Sequence record: MH383160
DNA length: 64,000 nucleotides
Direction: 5' to 3' (one strand)
Source of the DNA: Escherichia phage UB
Shown: positions 4,523 through 62,345 of the stretch, in pieces
Layout of the letters: each line of letters begins with the position of its first letter
Numbering within the stretch: position 1 is the stretch's first letter
Program-made: the position numbers and the translations under genes
The notes under the pieces: model-generated
Databases searched by the model: none
Told to the model about the DNA's origin: nothing
What the model saw: the letters and a program-made list of their open reading frames with translations, nothing else

Positions 4523-4840
4523 TTATTCTTTTACCTCATCAGTTTGAATGTATTTTTTGTCAGAGAATGTACCGTGTTCTTTACGCACAGCTTCTGCATG
4601 TTGAACCGCATCAACTGGATTAATGTTCTTTTTAATTAGTACTTCCTTCATTAATTCAAGTACAATTGCAAAACCATTCAGCACACGCTCAGATTCATCT
4701 ACATTTTTTAATTCAAGTGCTACTGCACTAATTTGATCGAACGCAACATTAATAAAATCGGAATCTTCTAATACATTTGCTACTTCCGTATTATTACGTA
4801 CTAGTACTTTCATATAATCTCCACAAAGATGATGCCCCAT
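4523..4840 (-). CDS. hypothetical protein
   Basis: 105 aa ORF immediately upstream of and abutting 4075..4521. Confidence 0.5.
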   Translation of the reverse strand: MGHHLCGDYMKVLVRNNTEVANVLEDSDFINVAFDQISAVALELKNVDESERVLNGFAIVLELMKEVLIKKNINPVDAVQHAEAVRKEHGTFSDKKYIQTDEVKE

Positions 4841-4861
4841 ATTGAGGCATCAAAATCTATC

Positions 4862-5557
4862 TTACACCCACTCTTCCACGCCACCGCGACGCTTAACTAA
4901 GTACTTACCTTCTTCATTGCGTGGCCCAAGAATAATACCATCGATGAAACCATGTTCACCATATTCAAGAGCTTCTTCTGCATTTAACCACAAATCACGG
5001 TCTGCATCTTTAAGTAGTTGTTCGTGTGTTACACCAACTGCTTCTGCAATTTCTTTAGTCAATAGAGTGTTTAGGGCATCAGAATGTTTAAGTGAAATCT
5101 TCTGGTCAGTAATTAGACCTTGTGTACCAGAACTTACTTGGTGACACATGAAATAAGAACGCTTACCACCTAAACGGAAACCTTTAGTGCCAATTACAGA
5201 TTGTGTATAGCAACCCATTGATGCTGCATAGCCCATTACTACAGTGCGAATTGGAGAAATACAAGACTTAGCAACATCTGCAATACCCAAACCTGCGTGT
5301 ACTGAACCACCCGGTGAACTAATGTAGAATGTAATAGGGGAATCACCTTGTGAGTCTAACCATACCAATTGTTGTTTGATGATATGTGCCATTTGATCAT
5401 TGAAATCAGTATCAAGGAAAATGATACGGTCTTGCATCATACGAGATGCTAGATCATATGTACGTTCTGAACCATTAACTTTCTCAACTACGTAAGGAAT
5501 AGAAATGTTACGTACTTCGCCATTAGCATAACCACCAAACATGAATTGTTCAACCAT
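4862..5557 (-). CDS. clpP: ATP-dependent Clp protease proteolytic subunit (ClpP) homologue
   Basis: Canonical ClpP segments: YISSPGGSV, MGYAASMG (catalytic Ser), MCHQ (His), DADRD (Asp); colinear with bacterial ClpP as recalled. Confidence 0.85.
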   Translation of the reverse strand: MVEQFMFGGYANGEVRNISIPYVVEKVNGSERTYDLASRMMQDRIIFLDTDFNDQMAHIIKQQLVWLDSQGDSPITFYISSPGGSVHAGLGIADVAKSCISPIRTVVMGYAASMGCYTQSVIGTKGFRLGGKRSYFMCHQVSSGTQGLITDQKISLKHSDALNTLLTKEIAEAVGVTHEQLLKDADRDLWLNAEEALEYGEHGFIDGIILGPRNEEGKYLVKRRGGVEEWV

Positions 5558-5621
5558 TATTTATTTCCTCTATTATTTCGTTGTTGTGAGTATTATATCA
5601 CTAAGATTTAAAATGTCCAAA

Positions 5622-6062
5622 CTATTTTACTGGAATATTTGAAAAGAAATCAGTCATCCAATACGCCGTCTCTTTGTTGAATAATACTGGATCAAACTTA
5701 AGTAACTCAACATGACTTGTATCATACACGCTTGTATCGGTAATGTCAAACAAAGTTTTAGTACTGAATAGTGGATTACTCACTAGAAAGTAGTAATCAG
5801 CAGTAGTGCTAATGTCATCATAAAACACACCGTCATACCATCCATCATCATATACATAAACAGAATCGTCATGAAGATAGTAAACTTCTATATGTAAACT
5901 CAAGTTCTTCATGGTTTCAATCATTTTTGCCGTATGAGGATTTAACTTATTGACATTTTCAAAAACATAAGAGTGTTTTTTATTCATATCAACAAATGAA
6001 AATATTCGTACTGAACGTATATTCATATTACTCCAAATAAACAAGTGAATTAATGAAATCAT
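5622..6062 (-). CDS. hypothetical protein
   Basis: 146 aa minus-strand ORF. Confidence 0.45.
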   Translation of the reverse strand: MISLIHLFIWSNMNIRSVRIFSFVDMNKKHSYVFENVNKLNPHTAKMIETMKNLSLHIEVYYLHDDSVYVYDDGWYDGVFYDDISTTADYYFLVSNPLFSTKTLFDITDTSVYDTSHVELLKFDPVLFNKETAYWMTDFFSNIPVK

Positions 6063-6411
6063 ATTTCAATTTATCATCAACATAATTCAAATCAACTTTA
6101 ATCATCGGAGCATGGGAACGTATAGACAGTGTTTCCATAAAGTACTGATTAAGTTTGTATGTATGGAAAAGATGAATATCTCGTTTCAACACCACCATTA
6201 CTTCCCCGAACAGATCACAGAGTTCAACTTCAGTGTTAGTTGGGTCAAACCCATAACGATTCTTTAATGTACGTGGTTCTTTATTTCGATAATAATGCAC
6301 AGCTTTATTACTATTCACTAACAAGTGATGATATGCATTACTATAAACTGAGCAAATAACTCGGCTTGGATAATTGGTATATTCTGGTAGTTCAAAATAA
6401 ATTAATGACAC
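6028..6411 (-). CDS. hypothetical protein
   Basis: 127 aa minus-strand ORF. Confidence 0.45.
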   Translation of the reverse strand: MSLIYFELPEYTNYPSRVICSVYSNAYHHLLVNSNKAVHYYRNKEPRTLKNRYGFDPTNTEVELCDLFGEVMVVLKRDIHLFHTYKLNQYFMETLSIRSHAPMIKVDLNYVDDKLKYDFINSLVYLE

Positions 6412-6423
6412 AATATCCTCTCA

Positions 6424-7215
6424 TTAAATTTCAAATACAAATTTAGGATTGTAATCAAAATTCTCACAAGCTCCACTGTATGATTCATAGCCTCGTGGAT
6501 TACAAATGATACGTGTCTTACCAATGTGGTAGTCAAAGCTACTATGAACATGACCATGAATCCAAACATCAGCACCCAAATCTTCAATGTACTGATCCAT
6601 ATCGGAACAGTAACAACCATTCAGTGAATCATTTTTATATTTTGGTGAAACACTTTGATAACTTGGTGCGTGATGGGTAACCACGATGACCTTGAAATCA
6701 TTATCATGCATAAAGCGAACTGTGTCAATAGAATTTTTGATAAATTGTTTATCTTTGTGATGCATAAACTCAGTATCATCTGGTGTCAGTTTCTTACGCC
6801 AAGGCTCTGATGTTGTTCCATGACGGATATGTTTGTAATCGTTCATCTTCTGACGAGCATCAAACTTCGTCAAAGAATTACCTTTATCGAAGTCTGTCCA
6901 CAGAGTACTACCAACAAGCAGTACTCCATCCAGCCATACAAATTTGTTTTGCAAAAAGATGAAATTTGGAATCTCATCTTGTATATCGGACAGTACTTGG
7001 TGCGTCTTGTGAATGTTTGAACCGTAATATTCATGGTTACCTGGAACCAGTACTACATTCTTAAACTGCTTACACAGGGATTCAATGCCAGTACGATAAC
7101 GACTACGTTTAACTTCATCAAAATCCCCAGCAATAATCAGTACTGTATCACTGTAATCACCACTATGGAGGTAATCAGTACCACCGTGTACGTCAGACGT
7201 TACAACAAATTTCAT
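6424..7215 (-). CDS. calcineurin-like metallophosphoesterase
   Basis: Metallophosphatase signature blocks: SDVHGG (D-x-H), GDFD, GNHE, VTHHAP, GHVH. Confidence 0.75.
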   Translation of the reverse strand: MKFVVTSDVHGGTDYLHSGDYSDTVLIIAGDFDEVKRSRYRTGIESLCKQFKNVVLVPGNHEYYGSNIHKTHQVLSDIQDEIPNFIFLQNKFVWLDGVLLVGSTLWTDFDKGNSLTKFDARQKMNDYKHIRHGTTSEPWRKKLTPDDTEFMHHKDKQFIKNSIDTVRFMHDNDFKVIVVTHHAPSYQSVSPKYKNDSLNGCYCSDMDQYIEDLGADVWIHGHVHSSFDYHIGKTRIICNPRGYESYSGACENFDYNPKFVFEI

Positions 7216-7234
7216 AATTACCTCCTATAAGTGT

Positions 7235-8653
7235 TTAGCCAAGTGATTCAATGATACTGTTTGAGAACACCTCAACAGCACTATCACGAATTTCTAAAAT
7301 ACGAGTATAGTCGTCACAAGTGTTTTTGTCAAATCTAAATTCAATAAACACTGGTAAGAACAGTGATGGCTCACCAGTACGCTTGTCGAATACAATGTCA
7401 TTACACTCAACTGTAACCACTTTACCAATAAGTTCTTGCATTCTTTCCCAAATGGTTTTAAAGGTCCATTCAGCATCTTTCTCTTTGATACCAGTACCCA
7501 CATTAACTTTCAATGAACCACAAGCACTTTCCAGTTGTAAAGAACCTAGGCTTCCTTTACGTTTACCTTCACCTTCATTGAAACCAACAATACGCAAGTC
7601 TAGTTGCATTTTCAATTTCATTTTCAACTGCTTCGGAGAAGTGTGAGATTTCCAGATACCATCTTCACATTTCAGTACTGAACCCTCTTCACCTTCGTTC
7701 ATTAGTTCACTATTGTACTCAAATGCTTCTTTGATGTTTAGAACTTTACGGAATCTAACCATACGAACAAAATCACTATTGAGTTCGTTAATTGCATCTA
7801 CTAAGATCTCGCGACGTTCTTTACGTTTTACATCCCATACACCTTCACAAAATGCATCATATGGAACAACATCCCATAGAACGAATACAGTACGCATTGC
7901 TTCATTCTGACTGATGCTATCTTTACCAGCTTTCTGAATTATACCGTTGCCAGTAGTGCGTGGGAGAATGGTTTCTCCATCATTGTCCAGTACTACACCT
8001 TCCCCCATAAAGACCACACCACTACTAAAACGTTCATCTTTACTTTGGATGATGTGAGCAAGACCTGCCATCTCACCATCACGACAACCCAGGAAGTCGT
8101 ATAGTTTACCATTACGGGATGTAGAAGTTAATGAACCATTAATGACAACGTGGTTCAAGTACTGACCATCCATTTTCACTTCTGATATAGCGTAACCATA
8201 ATCTTTGAAGTTGATGTTCTTTGCAGTCTTTTTGTCAATCAAAGAACAACGCATATATGGTTCGTCTTTAATAAAGCCTTTACCAAATACATCATTGCAG
8301 TTCTTTTCTTGAATACCACAATCAAGGTTTTTAGTAAGCATTTTACGGAGAACTTCCTGATCATCTTCAGATACAGAACCCAGTACTGAAGCAATGAAAT
8401 CACGCCCCGCATTTCCTGTCACATCACGCTTGTAAATGCATTCTAGCTTATCAATTGCTTCATCTAACGTCATATGTTGATATACGTCATCAGCGGCAGG
8501 GAGCTTCTTATAGCCACTAACGATAGAAGGGTCTAGAGTATATTTCAGTACTTTTTGTAAAGTTACATTATCTTTATTTTGTTCAAGAATAGCTTTTTTG
8601 CCTAGTGTACTGCTAGTATTTTTAATGCTTTCAAGAATTGCTAAAATGCTCAT
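7235..8653 (-). CDS. 30: ATP-dependent DNA ligase (T4 gene 30-like)
   Basis: Nucleotidyltransferase motif I K-x-D-G (EVKMDGQYL); N-terminal region MSILAILESIK..STLGKKAILEQNKDN closely parallels T4 DNA ligase N-terminus as recalled; 472 aa. Confidence 0.9.
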   Translation of the reverse strand: MSILAILESIKNTSSTLGKKAILEQNKDNVTLQKVLKYTLDPSIVSGYKKLPAADDVYQHMTLDEAIDKLECIYKRDVTGNAGRDFIASVLGSVSEDDQEVLRKMLTKNLDCGIQEKNCNDVFGKGFIKDEPYMRCSLIDKKTAKNINFKDYGYAISEVKMDGQYLNHVVINGSLTSTSRNGKLYDFLGCRDGEMAGLAHIIQSKDERFSSGVVFMGEGVVLDNDGETILPRTTGNGIIQKAGKDSISQNEAMRTVFVLWDVVPYDAFCEGVWDVKRKERREILVDAINELNSDFVRMVRFRKVLNIKEAFEYNSELMNEGEEGSVLKCEDGIWKSHTSPKQLKMKLKMQLDLRIVGFNEGEGKRKGSLGSLQLESACGSLKVNVGTGIKEKDAEWTFKTIWERMQELIGKVVTVECNDIVFDKRTGEPSLFLPVFIEFRFDKNTCDDYTRILEIRDSAVEVFSNSIIESLG

Positions 8654-8664
8654 TGTATATTCCT

Positions 8665-9867
8665 TTATAGATAATACTTTCCAATATAAAGTGGATTACT
8701 AATTGATAGTTGAACGTGACACGGCTTATCTTGGTAGTAACGAGAACTTGATGTTTTGCGTTCATTTGGTGGGAAGAATGGGGAACGATAGCCATTCCAT
8801 GTACTAAATGATGAGTGTTCATTAATATCAACATCCATTACCATAATCCCATTATCATCAATTTGAACTGGATATGCACTAAAGCGTTCAAATTTATCAT
8901 TATAATGGATATTATAATCTCCACTACGCCCATAATAACTACGCGTTGTATTATTACTTACACCAAAAAATACGCGATATGTTTGTTCATTATCTTTAGT
9001 CATAAATGGTACGTTCTCGTTGAAACGTCCATTATTCATAAGATCATCAACATTTATTTCTTCATATTTAATTTTTAGGTCTTTTGCTTTAAATGATTTA
9101 TTGTGTACCAGTACTGGAATGTTAGATTCACCTAATGGGTTATGTCTGTTTGTTCTATAGCTTTGCCAAAATTCATTAGCAAGTTTAATTTCTTCATCTG
9201 CCGTAGTCTTCTTATTCAAGAGTGCACGAGGTTCAAGATTGTAATTATCCAAACGTTGATTCAATGCATAAGTTCCACGAGTACTGTTAAAAAGTAAATG
9301 ATAAACTGAACTTTTGTCTGGATATGCAAATTCTTTAGTTTTCTTTATACAAATTGCATGTACTTTACCGCAGTAATAGTAATCTTCTTTAAGATAAGTG
9401 AAACCATCACCAACTTTAAGACCTGCTACAGTTTCTTTTTGTTGTTCTTTTTTATTTTCTTTTTCAACTAACTTAGCAAACGTTTTTGTTTTACCATTAA
9501 TTAATTCTAAGTTATTGTTGAAAAACATTGGGTCTACAAAAACACCTTTGATTATATCGTTATTGATAATTAAATCATTCATGTTTTTTGCACTAATCAT
9601 AAATTCAAATCCTTCTGGGTGACGGATCGTGAAATATGTTTCTCGTGCATGAGTTGTTAATTTATCAACTACACAAAATCCCGTAGTTGGAACGTTGTCA
9701 ATATATAACGATGGAAGATTGTTCTTCTTTGCCCAGTACTCTGCTCTCTCTTTCTTTGTTTCAAACGCTTTTGTATGTGATTTTGTTGCATCGATAATAA
9801 AACCATCAACTTGGTTGTGGTTTACATAGGAACGTGCAACAAATAACTTCTCTGGAAAATCCATCAA
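8665..9867 (-). CDS. hypothetical protein
   Basis: 400 aa minus-strand ORF directly downstream of ligase; no motif recognised. Confidence 0.55.
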   Translation of the reverse strand: MMDFPEKLFVARSYVNHNQVDGFIIDATKSHTKAFETKKERAEYWAKKNNLPSLYIDNVPTTGFCVVDKLTTHARETYFTIRHPEGFEFMISAKNMNDLIINNDIIKGVFVDPMFFNNNLELINGKTKTFAKLVEKENKKEQQKETVAGLKVGDGFTYLKEDYYYCGKVHAICIKKTKEFAYPDKSSVYHLLFNSTRGTYALNQRLDNYNLEPRALLNKKTTADEEIKLANEFWQSYRTNRHNPLGESNIPVLVHNKSFKAKDLKIKYEEINVDDLMNNGRFNENVPFMTKDNEQTYRVFFGVSNNTTRSYYGRSGDYNIHYNDKFERFSAYPVQIDDNGIMVMDVDINEHSSFSTWNGYRSPFFPPNERKTSSSRYYQDKPCHVQLSISNPLYIGKYYL

Positions 9868-10283
9868 ATTGTCCTCATTGTGCTGATTGCTTTTAATGTG
9901 TCAAACAATGCACCATATTTTACTTGCATTAGTTGATCACCAGCAGGAAGATTCATACGCATAACAGCCATGTCTTCAATCATTTCAGACGTACACAGTA
10001 CTGCTACACAGGTAATAGCATCATTCAATCCAGCTTCATTGAATTTGGCAAACGGAACTTTTCCCTGTTTGCTAAGGTTGTTATAATAAGAATTTAACTT
10101 ATCATGTCCACCAGCATTTAGTACTACAATAGTTTCGTGTTCATAGTACCATTCATCAATAATAGTACTGAAAGCAGTACCTTCATATTCTTTAATTAGT
10201 TTAACACCAGCATGGAATGCTTGAATACCAGCTTGGACACCTTGGCAGTACATATTAGTTAAACAATACAATTTCATTTCCAT
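9864..10283 (-). CDS. hypothetical protein
   Basis: 139 aa ORF; start overlaps upstream stop. Confidence 0.5.
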   Translation of the reverse strand: MEMKLYCLTNMYCQGVQAGIQAFHAGVKLIKEYEGTAFSTIIDEWYYEHETIVVLNAGGHDKLNSYYNNLSKQGKVPFAKFNEAGLNDAITCVAVLCTSEMIEDMAVMRMNLPAGDQLMQVKYGALFDTLKAISTMRTI

Positions 10284-10501
10284 ACCTCTTGTTTTTCTAA
10301 AAACCCTTTACCATCACAGCGTGGACATGCATAATAGCTGCGATAGTCTTCAGATGGCACTTGTTGTGTTCCATTACATGTAGGACACACTTTACGTGCA
10401 CCTGAAATAATACGTTCATGATGTTCAGCTTGTTTAGCTGAATCAAAAATGCGACCATCTTCAGTTTGGTATTTTTCTACCATAACTTGAATTACTTTCA
10501 T
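10274..10501 (-). CDS. small zinc-ribbon protein
   Basis: 75 aa with two Cys pairs, CPTC and CPRC, spaced about 20 residues apart. Confidence 0.5.
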   Translation of the reverse strand: MKVIQVMVEKYQTEDGRIFDSAKQAEHHERIISGARKVCPTCNGTQQVPSEDYRSYYACPRCDGKGFLEKQEVWK

Positions 10502-10511
10502 TTCTATTTCC

Positions 10512-10781
10512 TTATAAAAATGTTAAATCTTCAGTACTTAATTGTGATAATTTACCATCATATTCAATTTCAACATATACATTTTGGTCATAAACAGCAA
10601 CTACACGTTTAATAACTCCAACCTTCACGACATTCTTTTTGTAGTTGAACTCAACTGAACAACCAATAAGTTTATTTGATAGAATCTCACGTATTTGATT
10701 TGCATGATCTTTTAGGATAGAATTAATAGATTTTTTCATAATATATCTATCATTCAAATATTTTTTAACTACATCATGCAT
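10512..10781 (-). CDS. hypothetical small protein
   Basis: 89 aa ORF. Confidence 0.45.
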   Translation of the reverse strand: MHDVVKKYLNDRYIMKKSINSILKDHANQIREILSNKLIGCSVEFNYKKNVVKVGVIKRVVAVYDQNVYVEIEYDGKLSQLSTEDLTFL

Positions 10782-10786
10782 AATTA

Positions 10787-11545
10787 TTACCTTTTGAAAC
10801 GATTGAATGAGTACTCATCTTTTTCTTTACGTAAGTATCTCATTCCACCACTTTGTGGAGTAGCGAGAGTTAAGTCACCCGTCAAGAACTGACTATCAAT
10901 CCAAATGCGATTACCGTAAATTAGTGGATCTGTAACTGCTGTATGTCCACTAAAGACACAATGCACTCCATCTAACTTAGGTGCATAATATGTATTATTA
11001 GTTCTACAATAATCGAATGTTTTTCTATCCCACAAGCACTTATCAATTATATCAGCACTAAGTGATTTTGTCCCATTAACAAATCGTTCCCATGTTGTAT
11101 ATTCCAACGGAACTCCAGCATGAACTAACCCAATCTTCAATCCTCGGTGATTGATTTGGATAATCATAGGGAGATCCTTTAAGTACTGACGAAAGAATTG
11201 AATGCCTGTTCCTCCAACTTCATCAAGGAATTTATCACCACCATTACTTATCCAGCAATGATACCAATCTCGAAGTGTTTCCGAATCAACGCACATCATC
11301 TCATGATTACCCGCAATCATGTAACGATTTTCTCCGAACAAAAATTCAAAAAGGAGCTTTGAATTTTGTTCTCCACGGTCGATAATATCACCTACACTGA
11401 AAACATAATCATTGTGTGTAATACCAAATTCTTTCACTGTAGCATCCCATAGTTTTCCATTACCATGCAAATCACCTACAATGTATAAATCTTTATCATC
11501 AGGTACGGTTACTTCTAAGAAGTGTTTCATTATTACTCCAACCAT
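10787..11545 (-). CDS. Ser/Thr protein phosphatase (lambda PPase-like metallophosphatase)
   Basis: PPP-family motifs GDLHG, GDIIDRG, GNHE, plus downstream His-containing blocks (VHAG, SGHT). Confidence 0.75.
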   Translation of the reverse strand: MVGVIMKHFLEVTVPDDKDLYIVGDLHGNGKLWDATVKEFGITHNDYVFSVGDIIDRGEQNSKLLFEFLFGENRYMIAGNHEMMCVDSETLRDWYHCWISNGGDKFLDEVGGTGIQFFRQYLKDLPMIIQINHRGLKIGLVHAGVPLEYTTWERFVNGTKSLSADIIDKCLWDRKTFDYCRTNNTYYAPKLDGVHCVFSGHTAVTDPLIYGNRIWIDSQFLTGDLTLATPQSGGMRYLRKEKDEYSFNRFKR

Positions 11546-11784
11546 ATAATATTAGTGTGTTTAGTAACTTGTGTTCCAGCAAAAGAACCATCTTTAAGAT
11601 AAGTATTAATTTTAAAACGCCATTCACCACCACTAATATACATATCAGTAATAATATACTTTCCATACCCTCTGGAGTTTATTAATCGTACTTCTTGACC
11701 AATATATTTTGGCTTCAGATCATTTATAAAATCATCAGCCAAAGACATAAGATATCGCAGATGTGATAAGTCAGTGTTGAACAT
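11533..11784 (-). CDS. hypothetical small protein (K-Y-x-G family)
   Basis: 83 aa; motif LKPKYIGQEVRL shared with several other small ORFs in the window. Confidence 0.45.
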   Translation of the reverse strand: MFNTDLSHLRYLMSLADDFINDLKPKYIGQEVRLINSRGYGKYIITDMYISGGEWRFKINTYLKDGSFAGTQVTKHTNIIWLE

Positions 11785-11999
11785 TATTTCTTTCTCTTAT
11801 ATTTGTTAATAATATCTTGGGTAAGTGAAATAAAAATATATACTAATGTTACAGGCCAAATAATAGCCATCAGTGCTGCTGTTTGGAGATTCATGATAAT
11901 CATGATTTCATCTTTAAAACAACCCCAATTGAGTACTAGAAAGTTGGTTATAAATGTAACAAATGCTACAAATCCATATATTGCAAAAAATGTTATCAT
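11784..11999 (-). CDS. small membrane protein
   Basis: 71 aa, two hydrophobic helices. Confidence 0.4.
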   Translation of the reverse strand: MITFFAIYGFVAFVTFITNFLVLNWGCFKDEIMIIMNLQTAALMAIIWPVTLVYIFISLTQDIINKYKRKK

Positions 12000-12001
12000 A
12001 A

Positions 12002-12331
12002 TTATTCCTCATCATCCACTAAAACAAGATAATCCAAACTCAACTCGGTATCTATGTAACAATCACAATTCAAGTACTCAATTTCAGCACCTATAGTTCT
12101 CCCATTCTTAAATATCTCAATGATTTTCATTCTAGTATTGGGATTAATGTGTTCAATGTCGTATTCGTATTCAGGGTCAATATACTGACTTGTCATACGT
12201 TTGATGTATTGTTCCGAATATCGTACAGTTTTACCTATAAGATCATTACTCAACGTCTGATAAAAATCATCTTGAATTTTGAATAATGACCTATAAAAAA
12301 TATTATGTTGAATTAGTGGTTTCATTGACAT
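12002..12331 (-). CDS. hypothetical small protein
   Basis: 109 aa ORF; contains LIGKTVRY similar to the K-Y-x-G family. Confidence 0.45.
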   Translation of the reverse strand: MSMKPLIQHNIFYRSLFKIQDDFYQTLSNDLIGKTVRYSEQYIKRMTSQYIDPEYEYDIEHINPNTRMKIIEIFKNGRTIGAEIEYLNCDCYIDTELSLDYLVLVDDEE

Positions 12332-12960
12332 TAATCACAACTTCCAGACGATGAACTTGAATCAGAACTAGAGCTATCATAGGAACAAGAATCAGAGGAA
12401 GAACTGCTGTGACGGCTATAATCACTGTAATCATCATTGTTGTAGATTGGTGATGTTACGATTGCTGCTGCGGTCGCTGCCGTTGCAATTTGTGCAGTAT
12501 GGTCATGAACATCTAGTTTTGGTTCATCCTTAGATTTACCTTTGTTCTTACCTTTAGTGTAACGAGCTTTCTTTGCAGTTTTAGTATTTTTCTGTACTTT
12601 AGGAGCTTTTGGTTTCACATCTTCAACTACTGGAACTACATTCACTACAACTTTAGGATCAGTTTCTTCAAGTGTATTATACACTTTAACTTGCATTTGA
12701 ACTTCAACTTCTTTAACTTCTTCTTTAACTTCTGGAATAACTGTTTCTGGTGCTGGAGTGATTTTATCAAGTTCTTTAGTAATAAAGAAGCTTGTATTTT
12801 TCTCACCTAGCATAACAAGAAGACCAATGGCAATCACTGGACTTAGTACTGTACCAAGTACTACATAACCTAGAACACTTCTGTTATAGTTATATGCAAG
12901 CATACCAGAAATAATAATACCGATTACATATGCACTGCTAAGAATAATTGGGGTTAACAT
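12331..12960 (-). CDS. membrane protein with Lys-rich linker and Ser-rich C-terminal tail
   Basis: Two N-terminal TM helices, Lys-rich segment (KAPKVQKNTKTAKKARYTKGKNKGKSK), C-terminal low-complexity SSSSSDSCSYDSSSSDSSSSSGSCD. Confidence 0.5.
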   Translation of the reverse strand: MLTPIILSSAYVIGIIISGMLAYNYNRSVLGYVVLGTVLSPVIAIGLLVMLGEKNTSFFITKELDKITPAPETVIPEVKEEVKEVEVQMQVKVYNTLEETDPKVVVNVVPVVEDVKPKAPKVQKNTKTAKKARYTKGKNKGKSKDEPKLDVHDHTAQIATAATAAAIVTSPIYNNDDYSDYSRHSSSSSDSCSYDSSSSDSSSSSGSCD

Positions 12961-13264
12961 ATTCTACTCCTTTGTATATAAATTTACTAACTTCTTCGAT
13001 GTATAAAGACAACCCTGAACGTTCATTTAGAACTAACCAAGCACCAAAACCACATCGAATCTCGGATATACGAAACTCTTCTACACTATAAATTGAATAC
13101 GCGTTAAATGGACATATTTCATCAGATATACTTACCACATAGTTATTATTAATTGAATCTAACACCTGGGTATTGTATAAATTATTAGTACTGAAAATCT
13201 GCATTAACGAGCTAGAAAGCATCTCGGTTGTCTTTTCTAATATTGTTAAAAACGAACCATTCAC
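12938..13264 (-). CDS. hypothetical small protein
   Basis: 108 aa ORF. Confidence 0.4.
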   Translation of the reverse strand: MNGSFLTILEKTTEMLSSSLMQIFSTNNLYNTQVLDSINNNYVVSISDEICPFNAYSIYSVEEFRISEIRCGFGAWLVLNERSGLSLYIEEVSKFIYKGVEYVNPNYS

Positions 13265-13321
13265 TTCAACTTCTCCCTATTGGTGATGTAATCAAATTAT
13301 ATCACCGAATTCTGATACGTC

Positions 13322-13627
13322 TCATGATATTCGCATTTCATCTATATATAATGAACATGATTCAGAATTATCGTCTAAACTTAAACCTAAATCGACCATC
13401 AAACCGCAATGCGTTCCCCAGAATTTCTTTATGTATAGTTTTTTGCTACTATTACCTAAATCATAAACATATTCATTTTTAAATATACTTTTTAATTCTT
13501 CACATATACATTTTATTATCTTCATTACTTGATTATGATATTCGTATGGTATTCCATCAAGTTCGTTAATTATTAATGCAAAACCATTATCATAGTACTT
13601 AAGTTTATTGAATGTTTGTATATCCAT
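13322..13627 (-). CDS. hypothetical small protein
   Basis: 101 aa ORF. Confidence 0.4.
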   Translation of the reverse strand: MDIQTFNKLKYYDNGFALIINELDGIPYEYHNQVMKIIKCICEELKSIFKNEYVYDLGNSSKKLYIKKFWGTHCGLMVDLGLSLDDNSESCSLYIDEMRIS

Positions 13628-13924
13628 TTAATATATAATCTCACTAGCTTCTATTGTGTAGACACCATCATCAGTCATTAATCTTACTGCAACTTTAATA
13701 TTACTAGACATTCGTGTAACTATCAATCCAATAATTATACCATTCTTTAAAGTACCATTATGGTATCTAACTTTTACTTCAGTTTTATTATCAATTAAGT
13801 ATCTTCTAATTATGTGTATTTCATTTCTGAATAATTCTAAAAAAGCTTCACTATTTTCTTTATCTGACCCGTCTGAACACCAGTACAATAAATTTACTTG
13901 TTCAAATAATTTTTTTATATTCAT
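13628..13924 (-). CDS. hypothetical small protein
   Basis: 98 aa ORF. Confidence 0.4.
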   Translation of the reverse strand: MNIKKLFEQVNLLYWCSDGSDKENSEAFLELFRNEIHIIRRYLIDNKTEVKVRYHNGTLKNGIIIGLIVTRMSSNIKVAVRLMTDDGVYTIEASEIIY

Positions 13925-14280
13925 AAAAATCTCACAGATTTAATATTACTGGTTACATGATTTACCCAAGTGTTATCGAACTTGTAAACAATTGTATTAA
14001 GTGATTTATGAAAATTAACCTCGCACACTAAAGCCTTGGAACCATTGATTGTACAGACCGTGGATGGTAAGTTGTTTGCTAATATCTCTTTTTCATCTAA
14101 ACATAGTGAACTAATACAATCATAATAGAGAGGTTCAAGAACTTTTTCAGTACTGAGAAATTCAAAAGAAAGATCATCTATTAGTTTTATGTAATCGAAT
14201 AAATTATGATAATATTCATTCATTGTAGATCCTTTTAAATTTAGCATTATTAGAATATGTATATGAATGACCAAAATCAT
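13921..14280 (-). CDS. hypothetical small protein
   Basis: 119 aa ORF; start uncertain. Confidence 0.4.
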   Translation of the reverse strand: MILVIHIHILIMLNLKGSTMNEYYHNLFDYIKLIDDLSFEFLSTEKVLEPLYYDCISSLCLDEKEILANNLPSTVCTINGSKALVCEVNFHKSLNTIVYKFDNTWVNHVTSNIKSVRFL

Positions 14281-14467
14281 TTACACCATGTACATTTAGT
14301 ACACCGTCACTGAAATAAATTCGATCAATAGTGAGTTCACGTTTATAATCCCAATCATCATACCAGCACAGAACACGAATGCCTTTGTACTTTGTAGTTA
14401 AATCATTTTCTAATATAGTCAAGTAATCAATATGACTTTTGAATATCTCTAAGTCCTGCTCAAACAT
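14216..14467 (-). CDS. hypothetical small protein (K-Y-x-G family)
   Basis: 83 aa; LTTKYKGIRVL motif. Confidence 0.4.
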   Translation of the reverse strand: MFEQDLEIFKSHIDYLTILENDLTTKYKGIRVLCWYDDWDYKRELTIDRIYFSDGVLNVHGVNDFGHSYTYSNNAKFKRIYNE

Positions 14468-14727
14468 TATTGTTCCTCGTATAATTCTATATCATCAACT
14501 CCAACTTGGCGAATTGCAGTACTTCTGATGAATGTATTTTTTTCAAACAAACATACTGTTAAACGTATTTCACACTTCAATGCACTGTAATAAATCATAT
14601 CAATAACACCATATGTTTCATACATTTCTACGTATACATTTCGACCTAAGTACTTTTCTTCTAAATCAGTAATTAGACTATTGATAAGATTACCTATCTG
14701 TGTTATATCTGTGTGAAATTTATCCAT
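14467..14727 (-). CDS. hypothetical small protein (K-Y-x-G family)
   Basis: 86 aa; LEEKYLGRNVYV motif. Confidence 0.4.
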   Translation of the reverse strand: MDKFHTDITQIGNLINSLITDLEEKYLGRNVYVEMYETYGVIDMIYYSALKCEIRLTVCLFEKNTFIRSTAIRQVGVDDIELYEEQ

Positions 14728-14972
14728 TATAATAAACCTCTCACATAAAACATTGATGAAAATAGATAATCATCAGTACTTGTGTTTAGATGTTTAGAAA
14801 AGCTATATTTTTTATTTTTATTTTCGTATAAAGACAATCTATAGAACATTTCTATATTTTCTAAGTATTCTTTTTGTAATAACATCTGTGTTTTTACATT
14901 CATTATAATATTCCTTAAAAGAAAAAGGGACCAACATATGATCCCTTTTGTATTAGAAATTTCCTTCTGCAA
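14727..14972 (-). CDS. hypothetical small protein (start probably at an internal Met)
   Basis: 81 aa track ORF; its 5' part overlaps pseT 3' end and a weak hairpin, so the real start is likely downstream. Confidence 0.3.
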   Translation of the reverse strand: MQKEISNTKGIICWSLFLLRNIIMNVKTQMLLQKEYLENIEMFYRLSLYENKNKKYSFSKHLNTSTDDYLFSSMFYVRGLL

Positions 14973-15885
14973 CTTGAAAAACTTTCAAGCCAAGTAGCTT
15001 ACGCCACATGAATACGACTTGTGCTCGGTCATCATATACCTTTTTAACATCGTAATGATCAACCACATTTTTCATGTACAGGTCGAATTTTACAACATCA
15101 TCAGGACGTTTATCATCGATATCTCGCATAAACAATGCATCGTAAGGAACACCCCAATTCTTAAGCCACTGTTCGGTATCAGCACGACACCCTTCAGTAC
15201 GCCCACTCATGACGATAATCTTGCGTTTATGAAAAACTGCTTCAGCGATAATAGACAAAATAACTTCTTCATCAGGTGTATCCTGAAGAACAGTACTTTC
15301 ATCGTAAGGATTACGACCCCATTTATGAGCAAGAGTACCGTCAATATCAACGATAACAGCAGCTTCGCGTGAATTACCATAGTAACCAATGTGTAATGCT
15401 TTACTATAATAGTACGTATCTGCCATTTTGTCAATGATATCATCTGGTACTGAACGCCCACGCTGGAGGTTATATTTCTTACAAAGTTTTACGAACTCTT
15501 TAATCTTAAAGAATTCATGAACATCTGCACCACGGTCTTCATTAGGTACAAAATCATCATAGAAGTTCTTTTCTTTGTAATCATAACCATTATCTGTAGC
15601 CCATACTTTCCAGAGATCACGGAAATGTGGTTTAAGGTTCGTATCGGATACGATGATGTTCCAACCATTCTCTGCTGCTGAATTTGCTGCACTGAACTGT
15701 AAATTATCTACGTACTGCTCATTAGCATCGTTGAATTTGTAAGCATCATGTGACCCAGCCATAGATTCACGAATATCATCACGGTTGATGTTGATAGTCT
15801 TGGATTTGGCTTTTTTAATCTCTTGCACTGCCCATGTAGTTTTACCACACCCAGGCAATCCAACTGTTAATGTGATAGTTGGCAT
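14953..15885 (-). CDS. pseT: polynucleotide 5'-kinase / 3'-phosphatase
   Basis: Walker A GLPGCGKTT near N-terminus; HAD-like phosphatase motif VIVDIDGTLA; C-terminal DDVVK, DDRAQVVFMWR and QVAEGNF colinear with T4 Pnk as recalled. Confidence 0.9.
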   Translation of the reverse strand: MPTITLTVGLPGCGKTTWAVQEIKKAKSKTININRDDIRESMAGSHDAYKFNDANEQYVDNLQFSAANSAAENGWNIIVSDTNLKPHFRDLWKVWATDNGYDYKEKNFYDDFVPNEDRGADVHEFFKIKEFVKLCKKYNLQRGRSVPDDIIDKMADTYYYSKALHIGYYGNSREAAVIVDIDGTLAHKWGRNPYDESTVLQDTPDEEVILSIIAEAVFHKRKIIVMSGRTEGCRADTEQWLKNWGVPYDALFMRDIDDKRPDDVVKFDLYMKNVVDHYDVKKVYDDRAQVVFMWRKLLGLKVFQVAEGNF

Positions 15886-25679: not shown

Positions 25680-26300
25680 TTATAGACAGTTCTGTACTAT
25701 CTTATCAAAAGTACTACTGTCAATGTTATATTCATACAAAAATTTAAAATGTGAACCATAACGCATCATCAGATTAAACTCTTCTTCAGTATTAAATTTG
25801 TAATCATGAAGAGTTTCAGGGGTACATGTTAAACCTAAAAACTCAATTATTTCAGATGTTACATCATTTCCTGAATTGAAGTATTTAACCCAAACACATT
25901 TTCCTTGTGGGTTGTATTTTCTATATTCTCCTTCTAGTTCTCCTTTTATAATATGAGCCTTAACACTTATTAAATTATTACTATATCTTTCCTCGAAATA
26001 ATTACCATACTGTGCTTTTAATATTGTTGGTTTTTGTGTAGGAAGTAATTTGACTGAAGTAACTTCAATGCCGTTCTGTAATTCCTTTATGTACGAAATG
26101 CATCCTTTTTCTTTAATAACAACAAATCCTGTAAAGTTATCTTCATCTTGTAATTGGTTTTCACAATCAACAAAATCCAAAGTCTTATAGGTAAAAGTTT
26201 TTTGTTTTCTAATAAATGCCATCATTATTCCTATGGAAACATCAATGAATATACGTGACGTTGATTTCATCAACATCAGTAGAATTACCATGCTACGCAT
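25680..26300 (-). CDS. hypothetical protein
   Basis: 206 aa ORF; start uncertain. Confidence 0.5.
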   Translation of the reverse strand: MRSMVILLMLMKSTSRIFIDVSIGIMMAFIRKQKTFTYKTLDFVDCENQLQDEDNFTGFVVIKEKGCISYIKELQNGIEVTSVKLLPTQKPTILKAQYGNYFEERYSNNLISVKAHIIKGELEGEYRKYNPQGKCVWVKYFNSGNDVTSEIIEFLGLTCTPETLHDYKFNTEEEFNLMMRYGSHFKFLYEYNIDSSTFDKIVQNCL

Positions 26301-26840
26301 GTCTAATTCTACAAGTACTATTTTCTTTTAATTAATATTGACGGGGTTTGCTTGAGCATATTTCATCCCCCCGCAGGGGAAAGAACAAAAAAGTTTGACG
26401 CTGGTGGCCTTCACATAGTTCATATCACGAATTCTCTTACGAGACGAAAGCGGGTTGCTCTGTTTCTCTCTATCGCGGTTCTTGTAGCAACGGTCGTCGG
26501 TCTTAAACATCCCGACACATAATACAAATACCATATGACCAGTACTTGTATTTGATTTCACAAAATTTGGACGCAACTATATTGTATAATTCCGACCGCA
26601 TATTTCTTATGAAATCTCCCTTAGATAATTGGTAAGGTGCGATCCTTATATGTCTATCGAGGAACTCTCTTTATCCTATTGGAGTTCTTTATACAGCCGC
26701 ATTGCCGTGAGTGGTTCAAACTATGCCATCATCTAACGGGTTTCATCTGCTGTTCGTACTGAAAGGACTACTCATCTACCCTCTACATTTTCGAGTGGAT
26801 TAGGCTTTTAATCATTTCCTCATAGGAACCTTTCAGGATT
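26301..26840. other. GC-richer non-coding island (candidate structured RNA or regulatory region)
   Basis: About 540 bp without a convincing ORF; visibly higher GC than surroundings (runs such as CCCCCCGCAGGGG, GGTCGTCGGTC); flanked by terminator at 26841-26874. Confidence 0.35.
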
Positions 26841-26874
26841 AAAAAAAAGGTGACAACAACATCTGCTGTCACCT
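26841..26874 (-). terminator. rho-independent terminator
   Basis: GGTGACA..loop..TGTCACC 7-bp stem with A8 run on plus strand 5' side (T8 after hairpin on minus strand); immediately downstream of 26904..27758. Confidence 0.7.
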
Positions 26875-26903
26875 TACATTATATCATTAACTTATTCTTT
26901 GTC

Positions 26904-27758
26904 TCAGTTATATTCTGTTTTTTCAGTAAAATTTGTCAGTATATCAACGCTTACGCATCTAATAATTTCAATCTTACTTGGCATTAAACGGTGTTTATTT
27001 TTAACGTACAATTCATCATCTTCAATAAAAGACGTAAAAATGAATGCCATATCTTCACGTGGAATTTGTAAAATATCACACATTTCATTTGCCGATGCTA
27101 CTGGTGAATCATTGTAATACTTAGAGTATGCATTGGATTGGCGACCGATTATAATAGAATTTCTGATTAGAAAATTACTACAGTACTGAAAATCTTTGTA
27201 GTACTTTTCAATAATGTACGGCATAAGTGCTTCTTTCACGTCTTCATACCCATTAGTACTATCAATTGCTATACAGTAATCTTCACGTTCTTTTTTCTCA
27301 TGATGGTAATCATAAACATACTCAAAGAATGAATTTTTATTTAATGAATCATTTAAACCAACTGATCCACTATAGTATGATTTTCTATCATTCAATCGAT
27401 CATCTGGGCATGATGCATACATAGAAGTGTCATGTGATGATGTACCAATATAAATTTTCTTAGTAATATGATTATATGCTATGTAATCATAATCTTGAAC
27501 TCCAGTTAGCATTAACTGGAACATTAAATCATCAGGAACATCAATTAACGGGTACTCAAACTTCGAATATCTACTGCGGCAGAAGTTCTTTTCAAATGCT
27601 CGGTATGTGATAAAATCTTTTAGATTTTTACAAGATTCATGTTCATGAGCACTACTGATACGTACATTGACATTAGTCGATGTGCAATATCCATCCGAAT
27701 CTTCGGTGAAGTTACCAGCATAATCCTTATTGTAGTCAACGATTAGATAAAGTTTCAT
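26904..27758 (-). CDS. hypothetical protein
   Basis: 284 aa ORF; contains PDDLMFQLML, a degenerate family A-like motif. Confidence 0.55.
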   Translation of the reverse strand: MKLYLIVDYNKDYAGNFTEDSDGYCTSTNVNVRISSAHEHESCKNLKDFITYRAFEKNFCRSRYSKFEYPLIDVPDDLMFQLMLTGVQDYDYIAYNHITKKIYIGTSSHDTSMYASCPDDRLNDRKSYYSGSVGLNDSLNKNSFFEYVYDYHHEKKEREDYCIAIDSTNGYEDVKEALMPYIIEKYYKDFQYCSNFLIRNSIIIGRQSNAYSKYYNDSPVASANEMCDILQIPREDMAFIFTSFIEDDELYVKNKHRLMPSKIEIIRCVSVDILTNFTEKTEYN

Positions 27759-59752: not shown

Positions 59753-59942
59753 GTAAAGCTGTCAAATACTTCTGTACTGCTTGCTCTTGTTTATTTGTAC
59801 CTAAAAGTATATACATCCATAATTCACTGTAATGTACATCTTCTGTATAAGGGTTGTTGTAACTTTTTGATAATATAGCATCAAATTCAGATGCATGAAC
59901 CCTTGTGAACTTAAGAATATCTTGTTGTGTTATGATTCTCAT
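59721..59942 (-). CDS. family B small protein
   Basis: 73 aa; ILLGTNKQEQAV. Confidence 0.5.
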   Translation of the reverse strand: MRIITQQDILKFTRVHASEFDAILSKSYNNPYTEDVHYSELWMYILLGTNKQEQAVQKYLTALRDATANGVRV

Positions 59943-60154
59943 ATCTTTTCCTGTACAATCTGTATAAGAATACCTATGTGTGAATTAACAGTTCTCTCTT
60001 GATGCTGTGTTCCTAAGAGTGTCAGTACTATCATATCTGAACGCAAAAGATTTTTTTCAAGTTCACTTATATCAGTTCTTGAATCAAGTGCCATATATTT
60101 GTGATTATTCTTCCTGAATAGTGCCAAGTACTCTTGATTTGATATTTCCTTCAT
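59939..60154 (-). CDS. family B small protein
   Basis: 71 aa; LTLLGTQHQERTV. Confidence 0.5.
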   Translation of the reverse strand: MKEISNQEYLALFRKNNHKYMALDSRTDISELEKNLLRSDMIVLTLLGTQHQERTVNSHIGILIQIVQEKI

Positions 60155-60372
60155 AGTTTATTCCTGATGCCATTTAAAAGTGCTCTAATATGCTCATTGA
60201 CAAATCGCTCTTGGGAATCTGTTCCTAGAGTGAGTAGCAATCTTAAATCTGAACTTTTGATGTGATATTCTAAATCATTATTTGATTCTTGCATCAGTTT
60301 CTTAAAGGATGAGAAGTTTGCAGCCATTAGTTCAATGTATTCTGCTGTTCCTAGTGGTTTGTGTGTTGACAT
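60151..60372 (-). CDS. family B small protein
   Basis: 73 aa; LLTLGTDSQERFV. Confidence 0.5.
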   Translation of the reverse strand: MSTHKPLGTAEYIELMAANFSSFKKLMQESNNDLEYHIKSSDLRLLLTLGTDSQERFVNEHIRALLNGIRNKL

Positions 60373-60584
60373 TTGAGTTGTATTACCCTTTTGAGTGTAT
60401 TAATGTAATTATACACATTGGCTTCTTGATAGTTTGTTCCTAGAGTAGCTTGAACATAGATTTCATTTAACTTAATAATTTTATCAGTATCTGGTAGTTT
60501 TGATGTGTTAATGGCAAATAACTTCAAAAACAGTCCATTTAAGATTGTTAGGTATTCTTCGTCGGTAATGATTCGCATTTGCAT
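60351..60584 (-). CDS. family B small protein
   Basis: 77 aa; ATLGTNYQEANV. Confidence 0.5.
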   Translation of the reverse strand: MQMRIITDEEYLTILNGLFLKLFAINTSKLPDTDKIIKLNEIYVQATLGTNYQEANVYNYINTLKRVIQLKCQHTNH

Positions 60585-60796
60585 TGGATAAACCTTTTTA
60601 GTTCTTTGATGTAATCATTAATATTGCATTCTTGGTAGTTAGTTCCCAGTGTAGCTTGAACATAGATTTCACTTACTAGAATACTTATTTCATCATCTGG
60701 TAATTTCATGCTTTTTGTTATAAACAACTTTAGAATTAAACTACTTAATAGTTGGTTGTATTCTGTGGGTGAAATGATTTTCATTTTCATTTGCAT
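60548..60796 (-). CDS. family B small protein
   Basis: 82 aa; ATLGTNYQECNI. Confidence 0.5.
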   Translation of the reverse strand: MQMKMKIISPTEYNQLLSSLILKLFITKSMKLPDDEISILVSEIYVQATLGTNYQECNINDYIKELKRFIQCKCESLPTKNT

Positions 60797-61002
60797 TTTC
60801 TCAGTACTGATTCTTTAAGTTCATTGATGTAGTCCTCAACGAATTGTTCTTGTAGGTTTGTTCCGAGATATAACAGTACTCTTAAATCTGCTCTAAGTAC
60901 TTCTTTGTCATCTTCATCTATATCAGACAGTGTTATGTTTAAGAATTTACTTGAATTCTCTACAAGTAATATTACTTCTTCACCTTCTCTTAAAATTTTC
61001 AT
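60787..61002 (-). CDS. family B small protein
   Basis: 71 aa; LYLGTNLQEQFV. Confidence 0.5.
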   Translation of the reverse strand: MKILREGEEVILLVENSSKFLNITLSDIDEDDKEVLRADLRVLLYLGTNLQEQFVEDYINELKESVLRKCK

Positions 61003-61208
61003 AATCTTAGTGCTTTCCTCGACAGTAGGTACAGGTAACGTTCAGTGCATTGTTCTTGATAGTTTGTTCCTAATAAATGAACTAAATGTTGTTCAGCTAT
61101 AGAAAGCTGCTTGTCTTCATAACAAGCGTATCGTTGTTTCCTATGGTATTCTTTATTGATAACATCAAGGATGATAACACCGTATTCGTCATCTGTCAAG
61201 TGTTTCAT
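60999..61208 (-). CDS. family B small protein
   Basis: 69 aa; HLLGTNYQEQCT. Confidence 0.5.
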   Translation of the reverse strand: MKHLTDDEYGVIILDVINKEYHRKQRYACYEDKQLSIAEQHLVHLLGTNYQEQCTERYLYLLSRKALRL

Positions 61209-61446
61209 GCTTTTTTCTTTTTCTTATATGTTTAGTTAAAAGGTATATTAGTTTTCTGATGTATTCTTCCTGATAGTTTGTTCCTAAGAGTGCAAGAAGT
61301 TTTGCTTCAACTAAAGCTAATTGACGTTCTTCGAATGTGTGTTCCAGTATGTACTTGGGGTTTGATTTTTTAGCGTAAGCACTATTAGTCTTCATTACAA
61401 TCTTATGATATTCATTAGCTGTTAGGATTTTTAAATACTTGATCAT
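61189..61446 (-). CDS. family B small protein
   Basis: 85 aa; ALLGTNYQEEYI. Confidence 0.5.
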   Translation of the reverse strand: MIKYLKILTANEYHKIVMKTNSAYAKKSNPKYILEHTFEERQLALVEAKLLALLGTNYQEEYIRKLIYLLTKHIRKRKKHETLDR

Positions 61447-61666
61447 GTATCTTTTCCTTTATAGAGAATTTAAGATATCGAAGCATACTTTCAATGTAAT
61501 ACTCTTGTCTGTCAGTGCCAAGAAAGTACATGAGTTGAATGTATAAAACTTCTGCACTCCTTTCCGCTGGAGACTTGTTTGTGTCGTTTGGAAGTTGATT
61601 TGTATGTTTTCTTGATTTAATTAGTCGTTCTTTTAACTCATCGTCTGTTAAGTATTTCATTTTCAT
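61415..61666 (-). CDS. family B small protein (PAERSAEVL subtype)
   Basis: 83 aa; PAERSAEVLYIQLMYFLGTDRQEYYI. Confidence 0.5.
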   Translation of the reverse strand: MKMKYLTDDELKERLIKSRKHTNQLPNDTNKSPAERSAEVLYIQLMYFLGTDRQEYYIESMLRYLKFSIKEKIHDQVFKNPNS

Positions 61667-61892
61667 TTACTTTTTCCTTAATAGTAATTTTAAGATATCT
61701 AATCATACGTGCAACATATTCCTCTTGTCTATCAGTTCCCAGAAGATATGGTAGTGATTGGAATAATACTTCTGCACTCCTTTCTGCTGGGGTTTGGTTT
61801 AGGTCAATTGGACGTTTATTGGTATATCTCTTGGCACGAACTAATCTCTCGACGTATTCATTATAGGTTAAGTATATCATTTCATTTTGCAT
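61638..61892 (-). CDS. family B small protein (PAERSAEVL subtype)
   Basis: 84 aa; PAERSAEVLFQSLPYLLGTDRQEEYV. Confidence 0.5.
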   Translation of the reverse strand: MQNEMIYLTYNEYVERLVRAKRYTNKRPIDLNQTPAERSAEVLFQSLPYLLGTDRQEEYVARMIRYLKITIKEKVNENEILNRR

Positions 61893-62118
61893 TTACTTTT
61901 TCCTTAATAGTAATTTTGAGATATTTAATTATACGTTCAATGTGATACTCTTGCCTATCAGTTCCAAGAAGGTATGGTAATCTTTGGAATAAAACTTCCG
62001 CACTCCTTTCTGCTGGGGTTTGATTTGTGTTGTGAGGAAGTTTATTTGTAAGTCTTTTGGATTTATCTAGTCTTTCTGTTAACTCATCATGTGTTAAGTA
62101 TATCATTTCATTTTGCAT
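61882..62118 (-). CDS. family B small protein (PAERSAEVL subtype)
   Basis: 78 aa; PAERSAEVLFQRLPYLLGTDRQEYHI; N-terminus MQNEMIYLT identical to neighbour. Confidence 0.5.
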   Translation of the reverse strand: MQNEMIYLTHDELTERLDKSKRLTNKLPHNTNQTPAERSAEVLFQRLPYLLGTDRQEYHIERIIKYLKITIKEKVNAK

Positions 62119-62345
62119 TTAATGTTCCTTACGTAAATTGTCTGGATTAAACAATCAATCCAAGTTTGAATATATTGGTTTTGATACTGTGTGCCTAAGA
62201 GACTCTGCATTTTAAACTCTGCTTCAAGTTCATATCTCTTTTCTATAGAAAAGCTCAAATGACCATATTCTTTATCGTATCTTCTCAGTGCTTCCCCAAT
62301 TCTATTAAATCTTTCTGCTAATCTGATGTTATTCACAATATTCAT
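62103..62345 (-). CDS. family B small protein
   Basis: 80 aa; SLLGTQYQNQYI. Confidence 0.5.
   Translation of the reverse strand: MNIVNNIRLAERFNRIGEALRRYDKEYGHLSFSIEKRYELEAEFKMQSLLGTQYQNQYIQTWIDCLIQTIYVRNIKCKMK

Follow-up and report, generated by a model that had tools for sequence, protein, structure and literature searches.

An intergenic, covariation-supported RNA element of RaK2-like jumbo phages, with relatives in integrated elements of bacteria

Large RNAs with elaborate folds are rare, and historically they have proved to be ribozymes or core parts of central molecular machines. Phages and prophages carry GOLLD and ROOL as stand-alone genes. The P4 CI RNA (seqA/seqC sites) and the P1/P7 C4 antisense immunity RNAs are 77–79 nt long and pair with repeats via a complementary seqB. 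GOLLD, ROOL and OLE have been described as large 'ornate' RNAs (Kretsch et al., 2025, PMC12286853; Weinberg et al., 2017, PMC5737381), and RNA-only oligomers of all three were shown by cryo-EM (PMC12286853). In the related jumbo phage PA5oct, RNA-seq yielded four intergenic, ORF-less RNAs of 236–619 nt, ncRNA001–004 (Lood et al., 2020, PMC7318152), of which ncRNA001 and ncRNA002 each accounted for ~1–5% of phage reads at the sampled time points (PMC7318152). The main text of a 2023 catalogue of 10,006 candidate viral structured RNAs (PMC10690425) names none of the phages considered here; fragments of the element described below might be in the catalogue itself. The literature on RaK2-like phages, structured viral RNAs, GOLLD and ROOL was searched and no description of the element was found, nor was a transcriptome found for any phage carrying the family.

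The DNA analysed was a 64-kb stretch (the window) of an Asteriusvirus, one of the 121Q/PBECO4-like jumbo coliphages with genomes of ~350 kb. Its top blastn match was JP4 (99.5%), and nearly all of its genes lie on the minus strand. The initial annotation had singled out 26301–26840 as a GC-rich non-coding island. G+C content was indeed 0.400 in this interval against a mean of 0.325 for the window, a value that high being found in 0.85% of 540-nt windows, and the two motifs quoted from it were located, CCCCCCGCAGGGG at 26367 and GGTCGTCGGTC at 26492. The non-coding interval around the element is wider, 26223–26903; 26301–26840 is the core of the RNA, which extends past both ends of that interval. 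The island had also been called the only sizeable stretch without a convincing ORF. It holds no conserved ORF, but there are other ORF-poor stretches in the window. No ORF of at least 90 aa was found in 59753–62341 or 62633–63692, which by comparison with 121Q (~155–160 kb) are probably arrays of very small genes. Composition shifts abruptly in 60001–64000 (AT skew dropping to ~-0.22, GC skew climbing to ~0), unlike the other 60 kb. In 121Q, an unannotated gap of 1,967 nt (135194–137161) is not a member of the RNA family.

Reading frames across the element were compared among 56 family members. No conserved frame was found, a protein-coding ORF conserved by homology being what the initial annotation had named as evidence against its own reading. 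The longest ORF per member varied in strand, frame and sequence (median 63 aa, minimum 37). The 82-aa ORF (26328–26576, minus strand) exists but is present only in the window and its 121Q orthologue. Cross-genus alignments contained indels of 1–2 nt inside conserved blocks of the element, and since these lengths are not multiples of three, coding was ruled out. A 206-aa ORF called mechanically at 25680–26300 (minus strand) runs over-extended at its N-terminus into the RNA tail. It was judged so because curated relatives begin this gene at the equivalent of 26222; its likely start is the ATG at 26222–26220 (minus strand), which is preceded by the ribosome-binding site AGGAA and agrees with the G17 annotation. 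In several deposited genomes, 3–6 spurious 'hypothetical protein' ORFs were placed across the RNA.

The gap was found in syntenic position, between the same flanking genes and almost always unannotated, in 121Q, G17, Munch, Kaldavass, Serratia BF, GAP32 and RaK2. The conserved flanks are a hypothetical gene and its terminator upstream, and a hypothetical gene, a Dam methylase and a cytidylyltransferase downstream. A core of ~480 nt is 66–75% identical across RaK2-like genera, with long invariant blocks. Synteny extends over at least 6 genera, and the element is under purifying selection in structure as well as in sequence. When the whole 121Q genome was searched with a profile built from the orthologues, four copies came up, each on the same strand: P1, the orthologue of the window copy (192758–193340); P2, antisense to both neighbouring genes (326617–327295); P3, just after a sigma-factor gene (90265–90789); and P4 (247501–248100). 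No second copy was found within the 64-kb window (blastn, word size 7). GAP32, Serratia BF and Yersinia phage Yen9-04 carry five copies each, CBB at least four and RaK2 at least two. Exact-pattern scans of IMG/VR with two conserved motifs returned 27 and 57 loci, which appear to be RaK2-like jumbo-phage contigs, judging by their sizes and by the known isolates among them, and a metagenome scan returned 72 loci. Copies share one orientation within each contig (~20 contigs). UPGMA clustering produced groups that each held one copy per genus, giving four to five ancient orthologous groups; the paralogues are thus ancient and retained. Within the phage collection the family was confined to RaK2-like jumbo phages. 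A divergent branch, with a match to the central domain only (profile positions ~230–521), was found in other large lytic phages adjoining DHFR and Dda-like helicase genes (metagenome contigs L129, L130, L098, L103 and L108), so that the core domain may be older and more widespread than the full-length RNA. No relatives were found among 72,556 plasmids.

Comparative RNA folding with related phages was among the checks proposed by the initial annotation. RNAalifold on 26 members returned 63 pairs, 39 of them with compensatory double changes. Mutual information with helix extension on 56 non-redundant full-length members yielded 17 helices, of which four are pseudoknots; the top mutual-information pairs were 100% Watson-Crick with 3–4 pair types. 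On alignment A2, 95.6% of cells were paired in the curated structure against 39.5–43.4% with the 3' partners slid by 1–3 columns, a percentage that is inflated because the structure was derived from the same sequences, as the counts of multiple pair types (UA12/CG10/AU4; CG14/UA12) are not. Double-sided changes occurred in 61/84 pairs, and the covariation score was 0.521 against 0.07–0.10 and was reached by 0/500 shuffles (both A2). G.U cells numbered 155 and A.C cells 20, an excess that assigns the transcript to the minus strand of the window. Folding of the single sequence was not significant against shuffled controls (z = -1.1 for the RNA strand, -0.5 for the other strand), so the evidence for structure is entirely comparative. 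Conserved structure, whose absence was to have counted against the island, is present as covariation-supported helices, and the window element is almost certainly a structured RNA gene. Of the 'structured small RNA' originally suggested, 'structured' stands, with 17 covarying helices, and 'small' does not, the RNA being ~620 nt or more, and up to ~750 nt in paralogues.

A sigma-70 promoter with an extended -10 was predicted on the minus strand at the 5' end of the element (score 10/12, 16-nt spacer, TG present). The -35-like hexamer GAGACA (26900–26905) overlaps the stop codon of the upstream 284-aa gene. The extended -10, TGATATAAT (TGnTATAAT), lies at 26878–26886; its TATAAT was invariant in 26/26 aligned members and its TG was conserved. 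A GGAACA/GAGACA/GAAACG -35 box stands at equal distance in all paralogues and in the bacterial copies, and all four 121Q copies combine a GGAACA/GAGACA-type -35, a spacer of 16–17 nt and TGnTATAAT. A promoter cluster had been one candidate for the region; one strong minus-strand promoter was found. Directly after the -10, a terminator scan placed the intrinsic terminator of the upstream gene, a hairpin with 8 U (26839–26875, minus strand). This is the upstream terminator of the initial annotation, now resolved as a 13-bp hairpin and T-run at 26875–26847 with a tail to ~26839. Transcription is predicted to start at ~26872–26870 and, since the -10 directly precedes the hairpin, this start would lie within the hairpin's 5' arm. 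Upstream stop codon, -35, extended -10 and terminator follow in that order within ~70 nt (26839–26910, minus strand). Such a packed arrangement would halt incoming transcripts while new ones start with a truncated hairpin. The same layout of promoter, hairpin and T-run occurs in the P1 orthologues of Munch, Kaldavass, Serratia BF and GAP32, and the annotations of G17, Munch and GAP32 record the hairpin as a terminator. No terminator was found between the element and the downstream gene, and the island is thus not terminator-bounded on both sides, contrary to its description as lying between two terminator-bounded units.

Taken from the predicted start, the RNA gene would span ~26871 to ~26250 on the minus strand, ~620 nt or more. 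All features below are on this strand. The 5' domain (26554–26836, RNA positions 48–330), delimited by mutual information and helix extension on the 56 sequences, contains pseudoknots PK1 (26836–26829 with 26766–26759) and PK2 (26702–26700 with 26652–26650), together with hairpins P2 and P3, long-range helices P4 and P5, and helices P7, P8 and P9. Its pair counts on A2 include UA11/CG8/AU7 for 134–147 and AU14/UA12, with zero broken, for 153–230. The central domain (26419–26552, RNA positions 332–465) contains the motif GGTCGTCGGTC. PK3, a 7-bp pseudoknot, is formed from the loop of the long hairpin P10 (26539–26533 with 26425–26419), and PK4 joins 26491–26487 with 26458–26454; helices P11, P13, P14 and P15 also belong to this domain. 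PK3 pairs were CG14/UA12, GC19/AU7, UA17/AU8 and AU20/GC6, with 1 unpaired cell in the helix (99.5% paired), and pairs of P13 were UA12/CG10/AU4 and CG12/UA12/AU2 (all A2). One central-domain pair was UA23/CG22/GC11 on the 56-sequence set. Long invariant single-stranded blocks are held within the element.

The 3' module (26338–26418) consists of repeat r1, a U6 tract (26392–26387), the invariant hairpin P16 and repeat r2. P16 is CCCCUGCGGGG, and GGAUGAAA comes directly after it; the two together (26380–26360) correspond to the motif CCCCCCGCAGGGG. GGGGGGAUGAAA and CGUCA in this module are nearly invariant across members. In paralogues other than P1, an extra covarying, terminator-like hairpin with U6 lies between r1 and P16. 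The tail domain (26250–26337) was read from the sequence; in the window copy it is reduced to two hairpins (26312–26279 and 26277–26257) with no terminator after them. Other paralogues have a homologous and better-conserved tail, in which a GAAUUGAG...CAGUAC-AAACGAAGUGAA-GUACAG...AAUUC hairpin is followed by a second hairpin, and many end in a true terminator after conservation that runs ~200 nt into the tail domain. Conservation past the internal hairpin-U6, together with the terminal terminators, gives full RNAs of ~650–750 nt. As the window copy has no terminator of its own, transcription should continue into the downstream operon (hypothetical protein, Dam methylase, cytidylyltransferase), of which the window RNA would form a ~650-nt 5' leader unless processed out.

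Repeats r1 (AYCANCGUCAR, 26404–26395) and r2 (AYCNCGUCAR, 26346–26338) are direct repeats that change to the same letter within each molecule (U/U 34 against C/C 22; G/G 35 against A/A 17). Rare variants occur in both repeats of one molecule: CUUCA in RaK2, UGUCA in three genomes and CGACA in a Serratia copy. A complementary partner for r1/r2 was sought in each element and its flanks, and none was consistent across members. Local pairing is plausible for both repeats, r1 with a GAC upstream of it and r2 with the invariant GAUG, but it accounts for only part of the concerted variation. The complements of the repeats read TTGACG, and antisense promoters were considered at both; no usable -10 was seen by eye and none was returned by the promoter scan.

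Copies in bacterial chromosomes were sought in a genome scan, and full-length members were found in Serratia fonticola, Serratia sp. 2723, Silvania hatchlandensis and an Enterobacteriaceae MAG (nhmmer E ~1e-82 to 1e-89); in E. coli, copies were found in 2 of 5,426 genomes by blastn. The bacterial copies are single, and every one lies within an integrated element, with a recombinase gene close by in 4/5. The gene order is rimO, serine recombinase, RNA and cI-type repressor in Silvania; dapE, arsC, serine recombinase and RNA in Serratia sp. 2723; serine recombinase, two ParB/RepB-like genes, RNA and a duplicated rof in Serratia fonticola; and thiD, thiM, RNA and cI-type repressor in the MAG. In E. 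coli the RNA is in an island between ffs and ybaA with an integrase fragment, an IS3 and hypothetical genes. Unrelated integrases adjoin the bacterial copies, and the promoter type is kept in those of Silvania, the MAG and both strains of Serratia. Identity between the E. coli copy and one Eneladusvirus paralogue is 80.6%, which indicates horizontal acquisition from a jumbo phage. Three flanking island proteins were tested for a co-transferred phage protein and had no homologue in RaK2-like phages. Movement to bacteria with no phage protein detected alongside means that the RNA moves, and presumably works, as a self-contained module.

The island of E. coli LR-29-1 (NZ_AP027515.1), perhaps a defence island, covers ~10.5 kb (locus coordinates 4752–15302). 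Besides a tyrosine integrase disrupted by IS3 it includes a small recombinase and genes of the DUF4326, DUF488 and dual-OB types. Its RNA is at locus coordinates 8956–9553, inside an unannotated 1.4-kb gap. In Serratia fonticola CP183218 (locus coordinates 4775–5490), two near-identical 87-aa rof genes stand in tandem beside the RNA element, an arrangement suggestive of integration into rof with duplication of the target.

Known RNA families were searched as the initial annotation had advised. The 4227 covariance models of Rfam 15, which include group I/II introns, RNase P, tmRNA, 6S, GOLLD, ROOL, OLE, HEARO, raiA and self-cleaving ribozymes, gave 0 matches at gathering score in the whole window. 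At permissive E, only chance-level hits were seen in 26100–27000 (E 0.6–10, far below gathering), and six other members, including bacterial copies, gave 0 matches at E <= 0.1. ARAGORN found 0 tRNA or tmRNA genes in the window. A group I/II intron does not fit: the genes on either side of the element are complete, a terminator and the element's own promoter precede it, and the paralogues are likewise intergenic. The hammerhead ribozyme was considered for CAGAUGA, a G-C closed stem and GNN, set against the invariant CUGAUGA...GAAA; the two positions after the G vary and covary in helix P4, and the reading fails because positions that are required to be invariant covary as part of that helix. 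Antitermination of the put/nut type presupposes a leader position, which is true for the window copy but fails for copy P2 and three bacterial copies.

Several other readings of the element were weighed. That its multi-pseudoknot core is a ribozyme, processing itself or acting on tRNA or mRNA with r1 and r2 as substrate or processing sites releasing a smaller RNA, is unlikely. Large size, pseudoknots and invariant unpaired nucleotides are the historical mark of ribozymes and RNP cores, and the element has the size, four pseudoknots and many invariant unpaired nucleotides in a covarying scaffold. Its arms vary between paralogues around a constant core, and a near-hammerhead string, CAGAUGA-stem-GAA, occurs at RNA positions 106–131. 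However, no Rfam ribozyme model matched, the hammerhead-like G12-A13-A14 is not conserved and covaries within helix P4, and no cleavage-site logic could be derived. Each copy could instead be a replication origin, its RNA forming a persistent R-loop via the G-run and priming the leading strand as ColE1 RNA II or T4 oriF/oriG do. This seems quite improbable, even with a strong promoter, an invariant G6 run beside a U-tract, and phage-encoded RNase H, UvsW and T4-type replication proteins. The four 121Q copies are 55–112 kb apart (record coordinates; up to 112 kb if circular), and one bacterial copy is beside two ParB/RepB-like genes. The shared orientation within a genome (~20 contigs) is weak evidence for an origin, because ~93% of 121Q genes are on that strand (a rough tally from annotation tables). 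Homologues were absent from the 72,556 plasmids, there is no skew inflection at the site, and island copies are at the integrase end, not by replication genes. Moreover, conservation continues ~200 nt past the G-run, and four pseudoknots are more than priming needs.

In the window, a strong promoter precedes the element and an operon follows it with no intervening terminator, a position that would suit a cis-acting leader, either for processive antitermination (HK022 put, lambda/rrn nut) or as a large attenuator or riboswitch, controlling read-through of the hairpin-U6 and the downstream genes. So would the terminator-like hairpin and U6 within the conserved region of the non-P1 paralogues, with more conserved sequence beyond, and a putatively boxA-like CUCAACAAAUC after hairpin P16. 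But copy P2 and three bacterial copies are transcribed towards convergent genes and so lead no operon, many paralogues have their own terminator, and known put/nut elements are ~70 nt long against >600 here; a leader function is accordingly rather doubtful. The identical, non-complementary variation of r1 and r2 matches the expectation for a pair of sites recognised by a single factor, or for crossover cores, as in a DNA-level element made of single-stranded DNA structures or of an array of protein sites (iterons, recombination cores) with r1 and r2 as matched sites. A promoter stands before every copy and is oriented accordingly, the nested helices, the pseudoknots and an excess of G.U specific to one strand (155 cells against 20) speak for a transcript, and no recombinase or initiator gene is consistently adjacent in phages, all of which make a DNA element very improbable. 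A degenerate intron or mobile-element remnant, as the initial annotation had proposed, or a small protein gene is hardly credible. The island is GC-rich in an AT-rich genome, 121Q has several HNH and GIY-YIG endonuclease genes in other places, and the 82-aa ORF exists; yet the element is intergenic with its own promoter, splits no flanking gene, matches no group I/II model and is syntenic in at least six genera with structure and sequence under purifying selection across them, and the ORF is neither conserved nor free of frame-breaking indels.

The preferred reading is that of an autonomously transcribed, independent RNA acting in trans, to which we assign a probability of about 0.55; any particular molecular target deserves far less confidence. 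Autonomy is indicated by copy P2, which is antisense to both neighbours, and by other paralogues with their own terminators. The consensus early promoter, the retained ancient copies and the independent capture by islands suggest a conserved, self-sufficient activity. Under this model, host RNA polymerase would transcribe the RNA right after infection, giving an abundant early RNA that would fold into a compact core with variable peripheral arms. The stable RNA might then work in trans, alone or with a component common to all Enterobacterales. It could be a scaffold, sponge, decoy or mimic directed at some part of the host apparatus for transcription, translation or RNA processing, or a ribozyme. 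Specificity could be set by the variable arms together with r1 and r2, which may be duplicated docking or pairing sites, and the diverged paralogues could provide different specificities or timing. In an island, a copy might confer this activity on its bacterium or prophage outside the jumbo-phage setting, and one use could be to interfere with a jumbo phage that enters the cell. A bolder version of this model is tentative and on balance not expected to hold. In it the family would be an unrecognised giant multi-pseudoknot RNA class of ~600–750 nt, either a new ribozyme or, built of RNA only, a machine or a mimic of host machinery, with four to five specialised paralogues at work from the first minutes; islands would repeatedly have captured single copies for anti-phage defence or superinfection exclusion, and r1/r2 would be a duplicated recognition site for a partner.

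Carriers of the family include 121Q, PBECO4 and phAPEC6, which are well-studied coliphages and therapeutic candidates. The element is an unannotated gap, or is covered by spurious small ORFs, in the majority of deposited genomes. The loci merit annotation as ncRNA genes, not as hypothetical proteins. If the suggested self-sufficient activity is real, the family would allow a new function of RNA in phage takeover or defence to be sought in E. coli, where it is tractable, and would be a new target for RNA structure determination.

We regard the element as a new RNA class, and it is a member of no catalogued family. Like the PA5oct lncRNAs it is intergenic and ORF-less; no nhmmer homology (E > 0.25) and no signature motif in common were found between those RNAs and the family, so that their abundance says nothing on its expression. 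It resembles ColE1 RNA II and T4 oriF/oriG as a promoter-driven folded transcript of ~500 nt whose G-rich segment by a U/A-rich tract could hold an R-loop, in a phage with RNase H. Unlike them, it has a far more complex fold and conservation past the G-run, and no antisense regulator and no plasmid relatives were found. The P4 CI and P1/P7 C4 RNAs serve here as a lead only. Shared features are two direct repeats per transcript that covary identically and, in integrated elements, a gene position flanked by int and the immunity region, whereas no complementary partner for r1/r2 was found in cis. The element differs from GOLLD, ROOL and OLE in having no match to their Rfam models, in having 4–5 diverged paralogues per genome with no tRNA-gene association, and in its hosts, which are Enterobacterales and Xanthomonas jumbo myoviruses, whereas those of the three are mostly Firmicutes, rumen and lake organisms. 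In kind, GOLLD, ROOL and OLE are nonetheless the closest known things to it: like them it exceeds 500 nt and combines many helices and pseudoknots with conserved unpaired regions.
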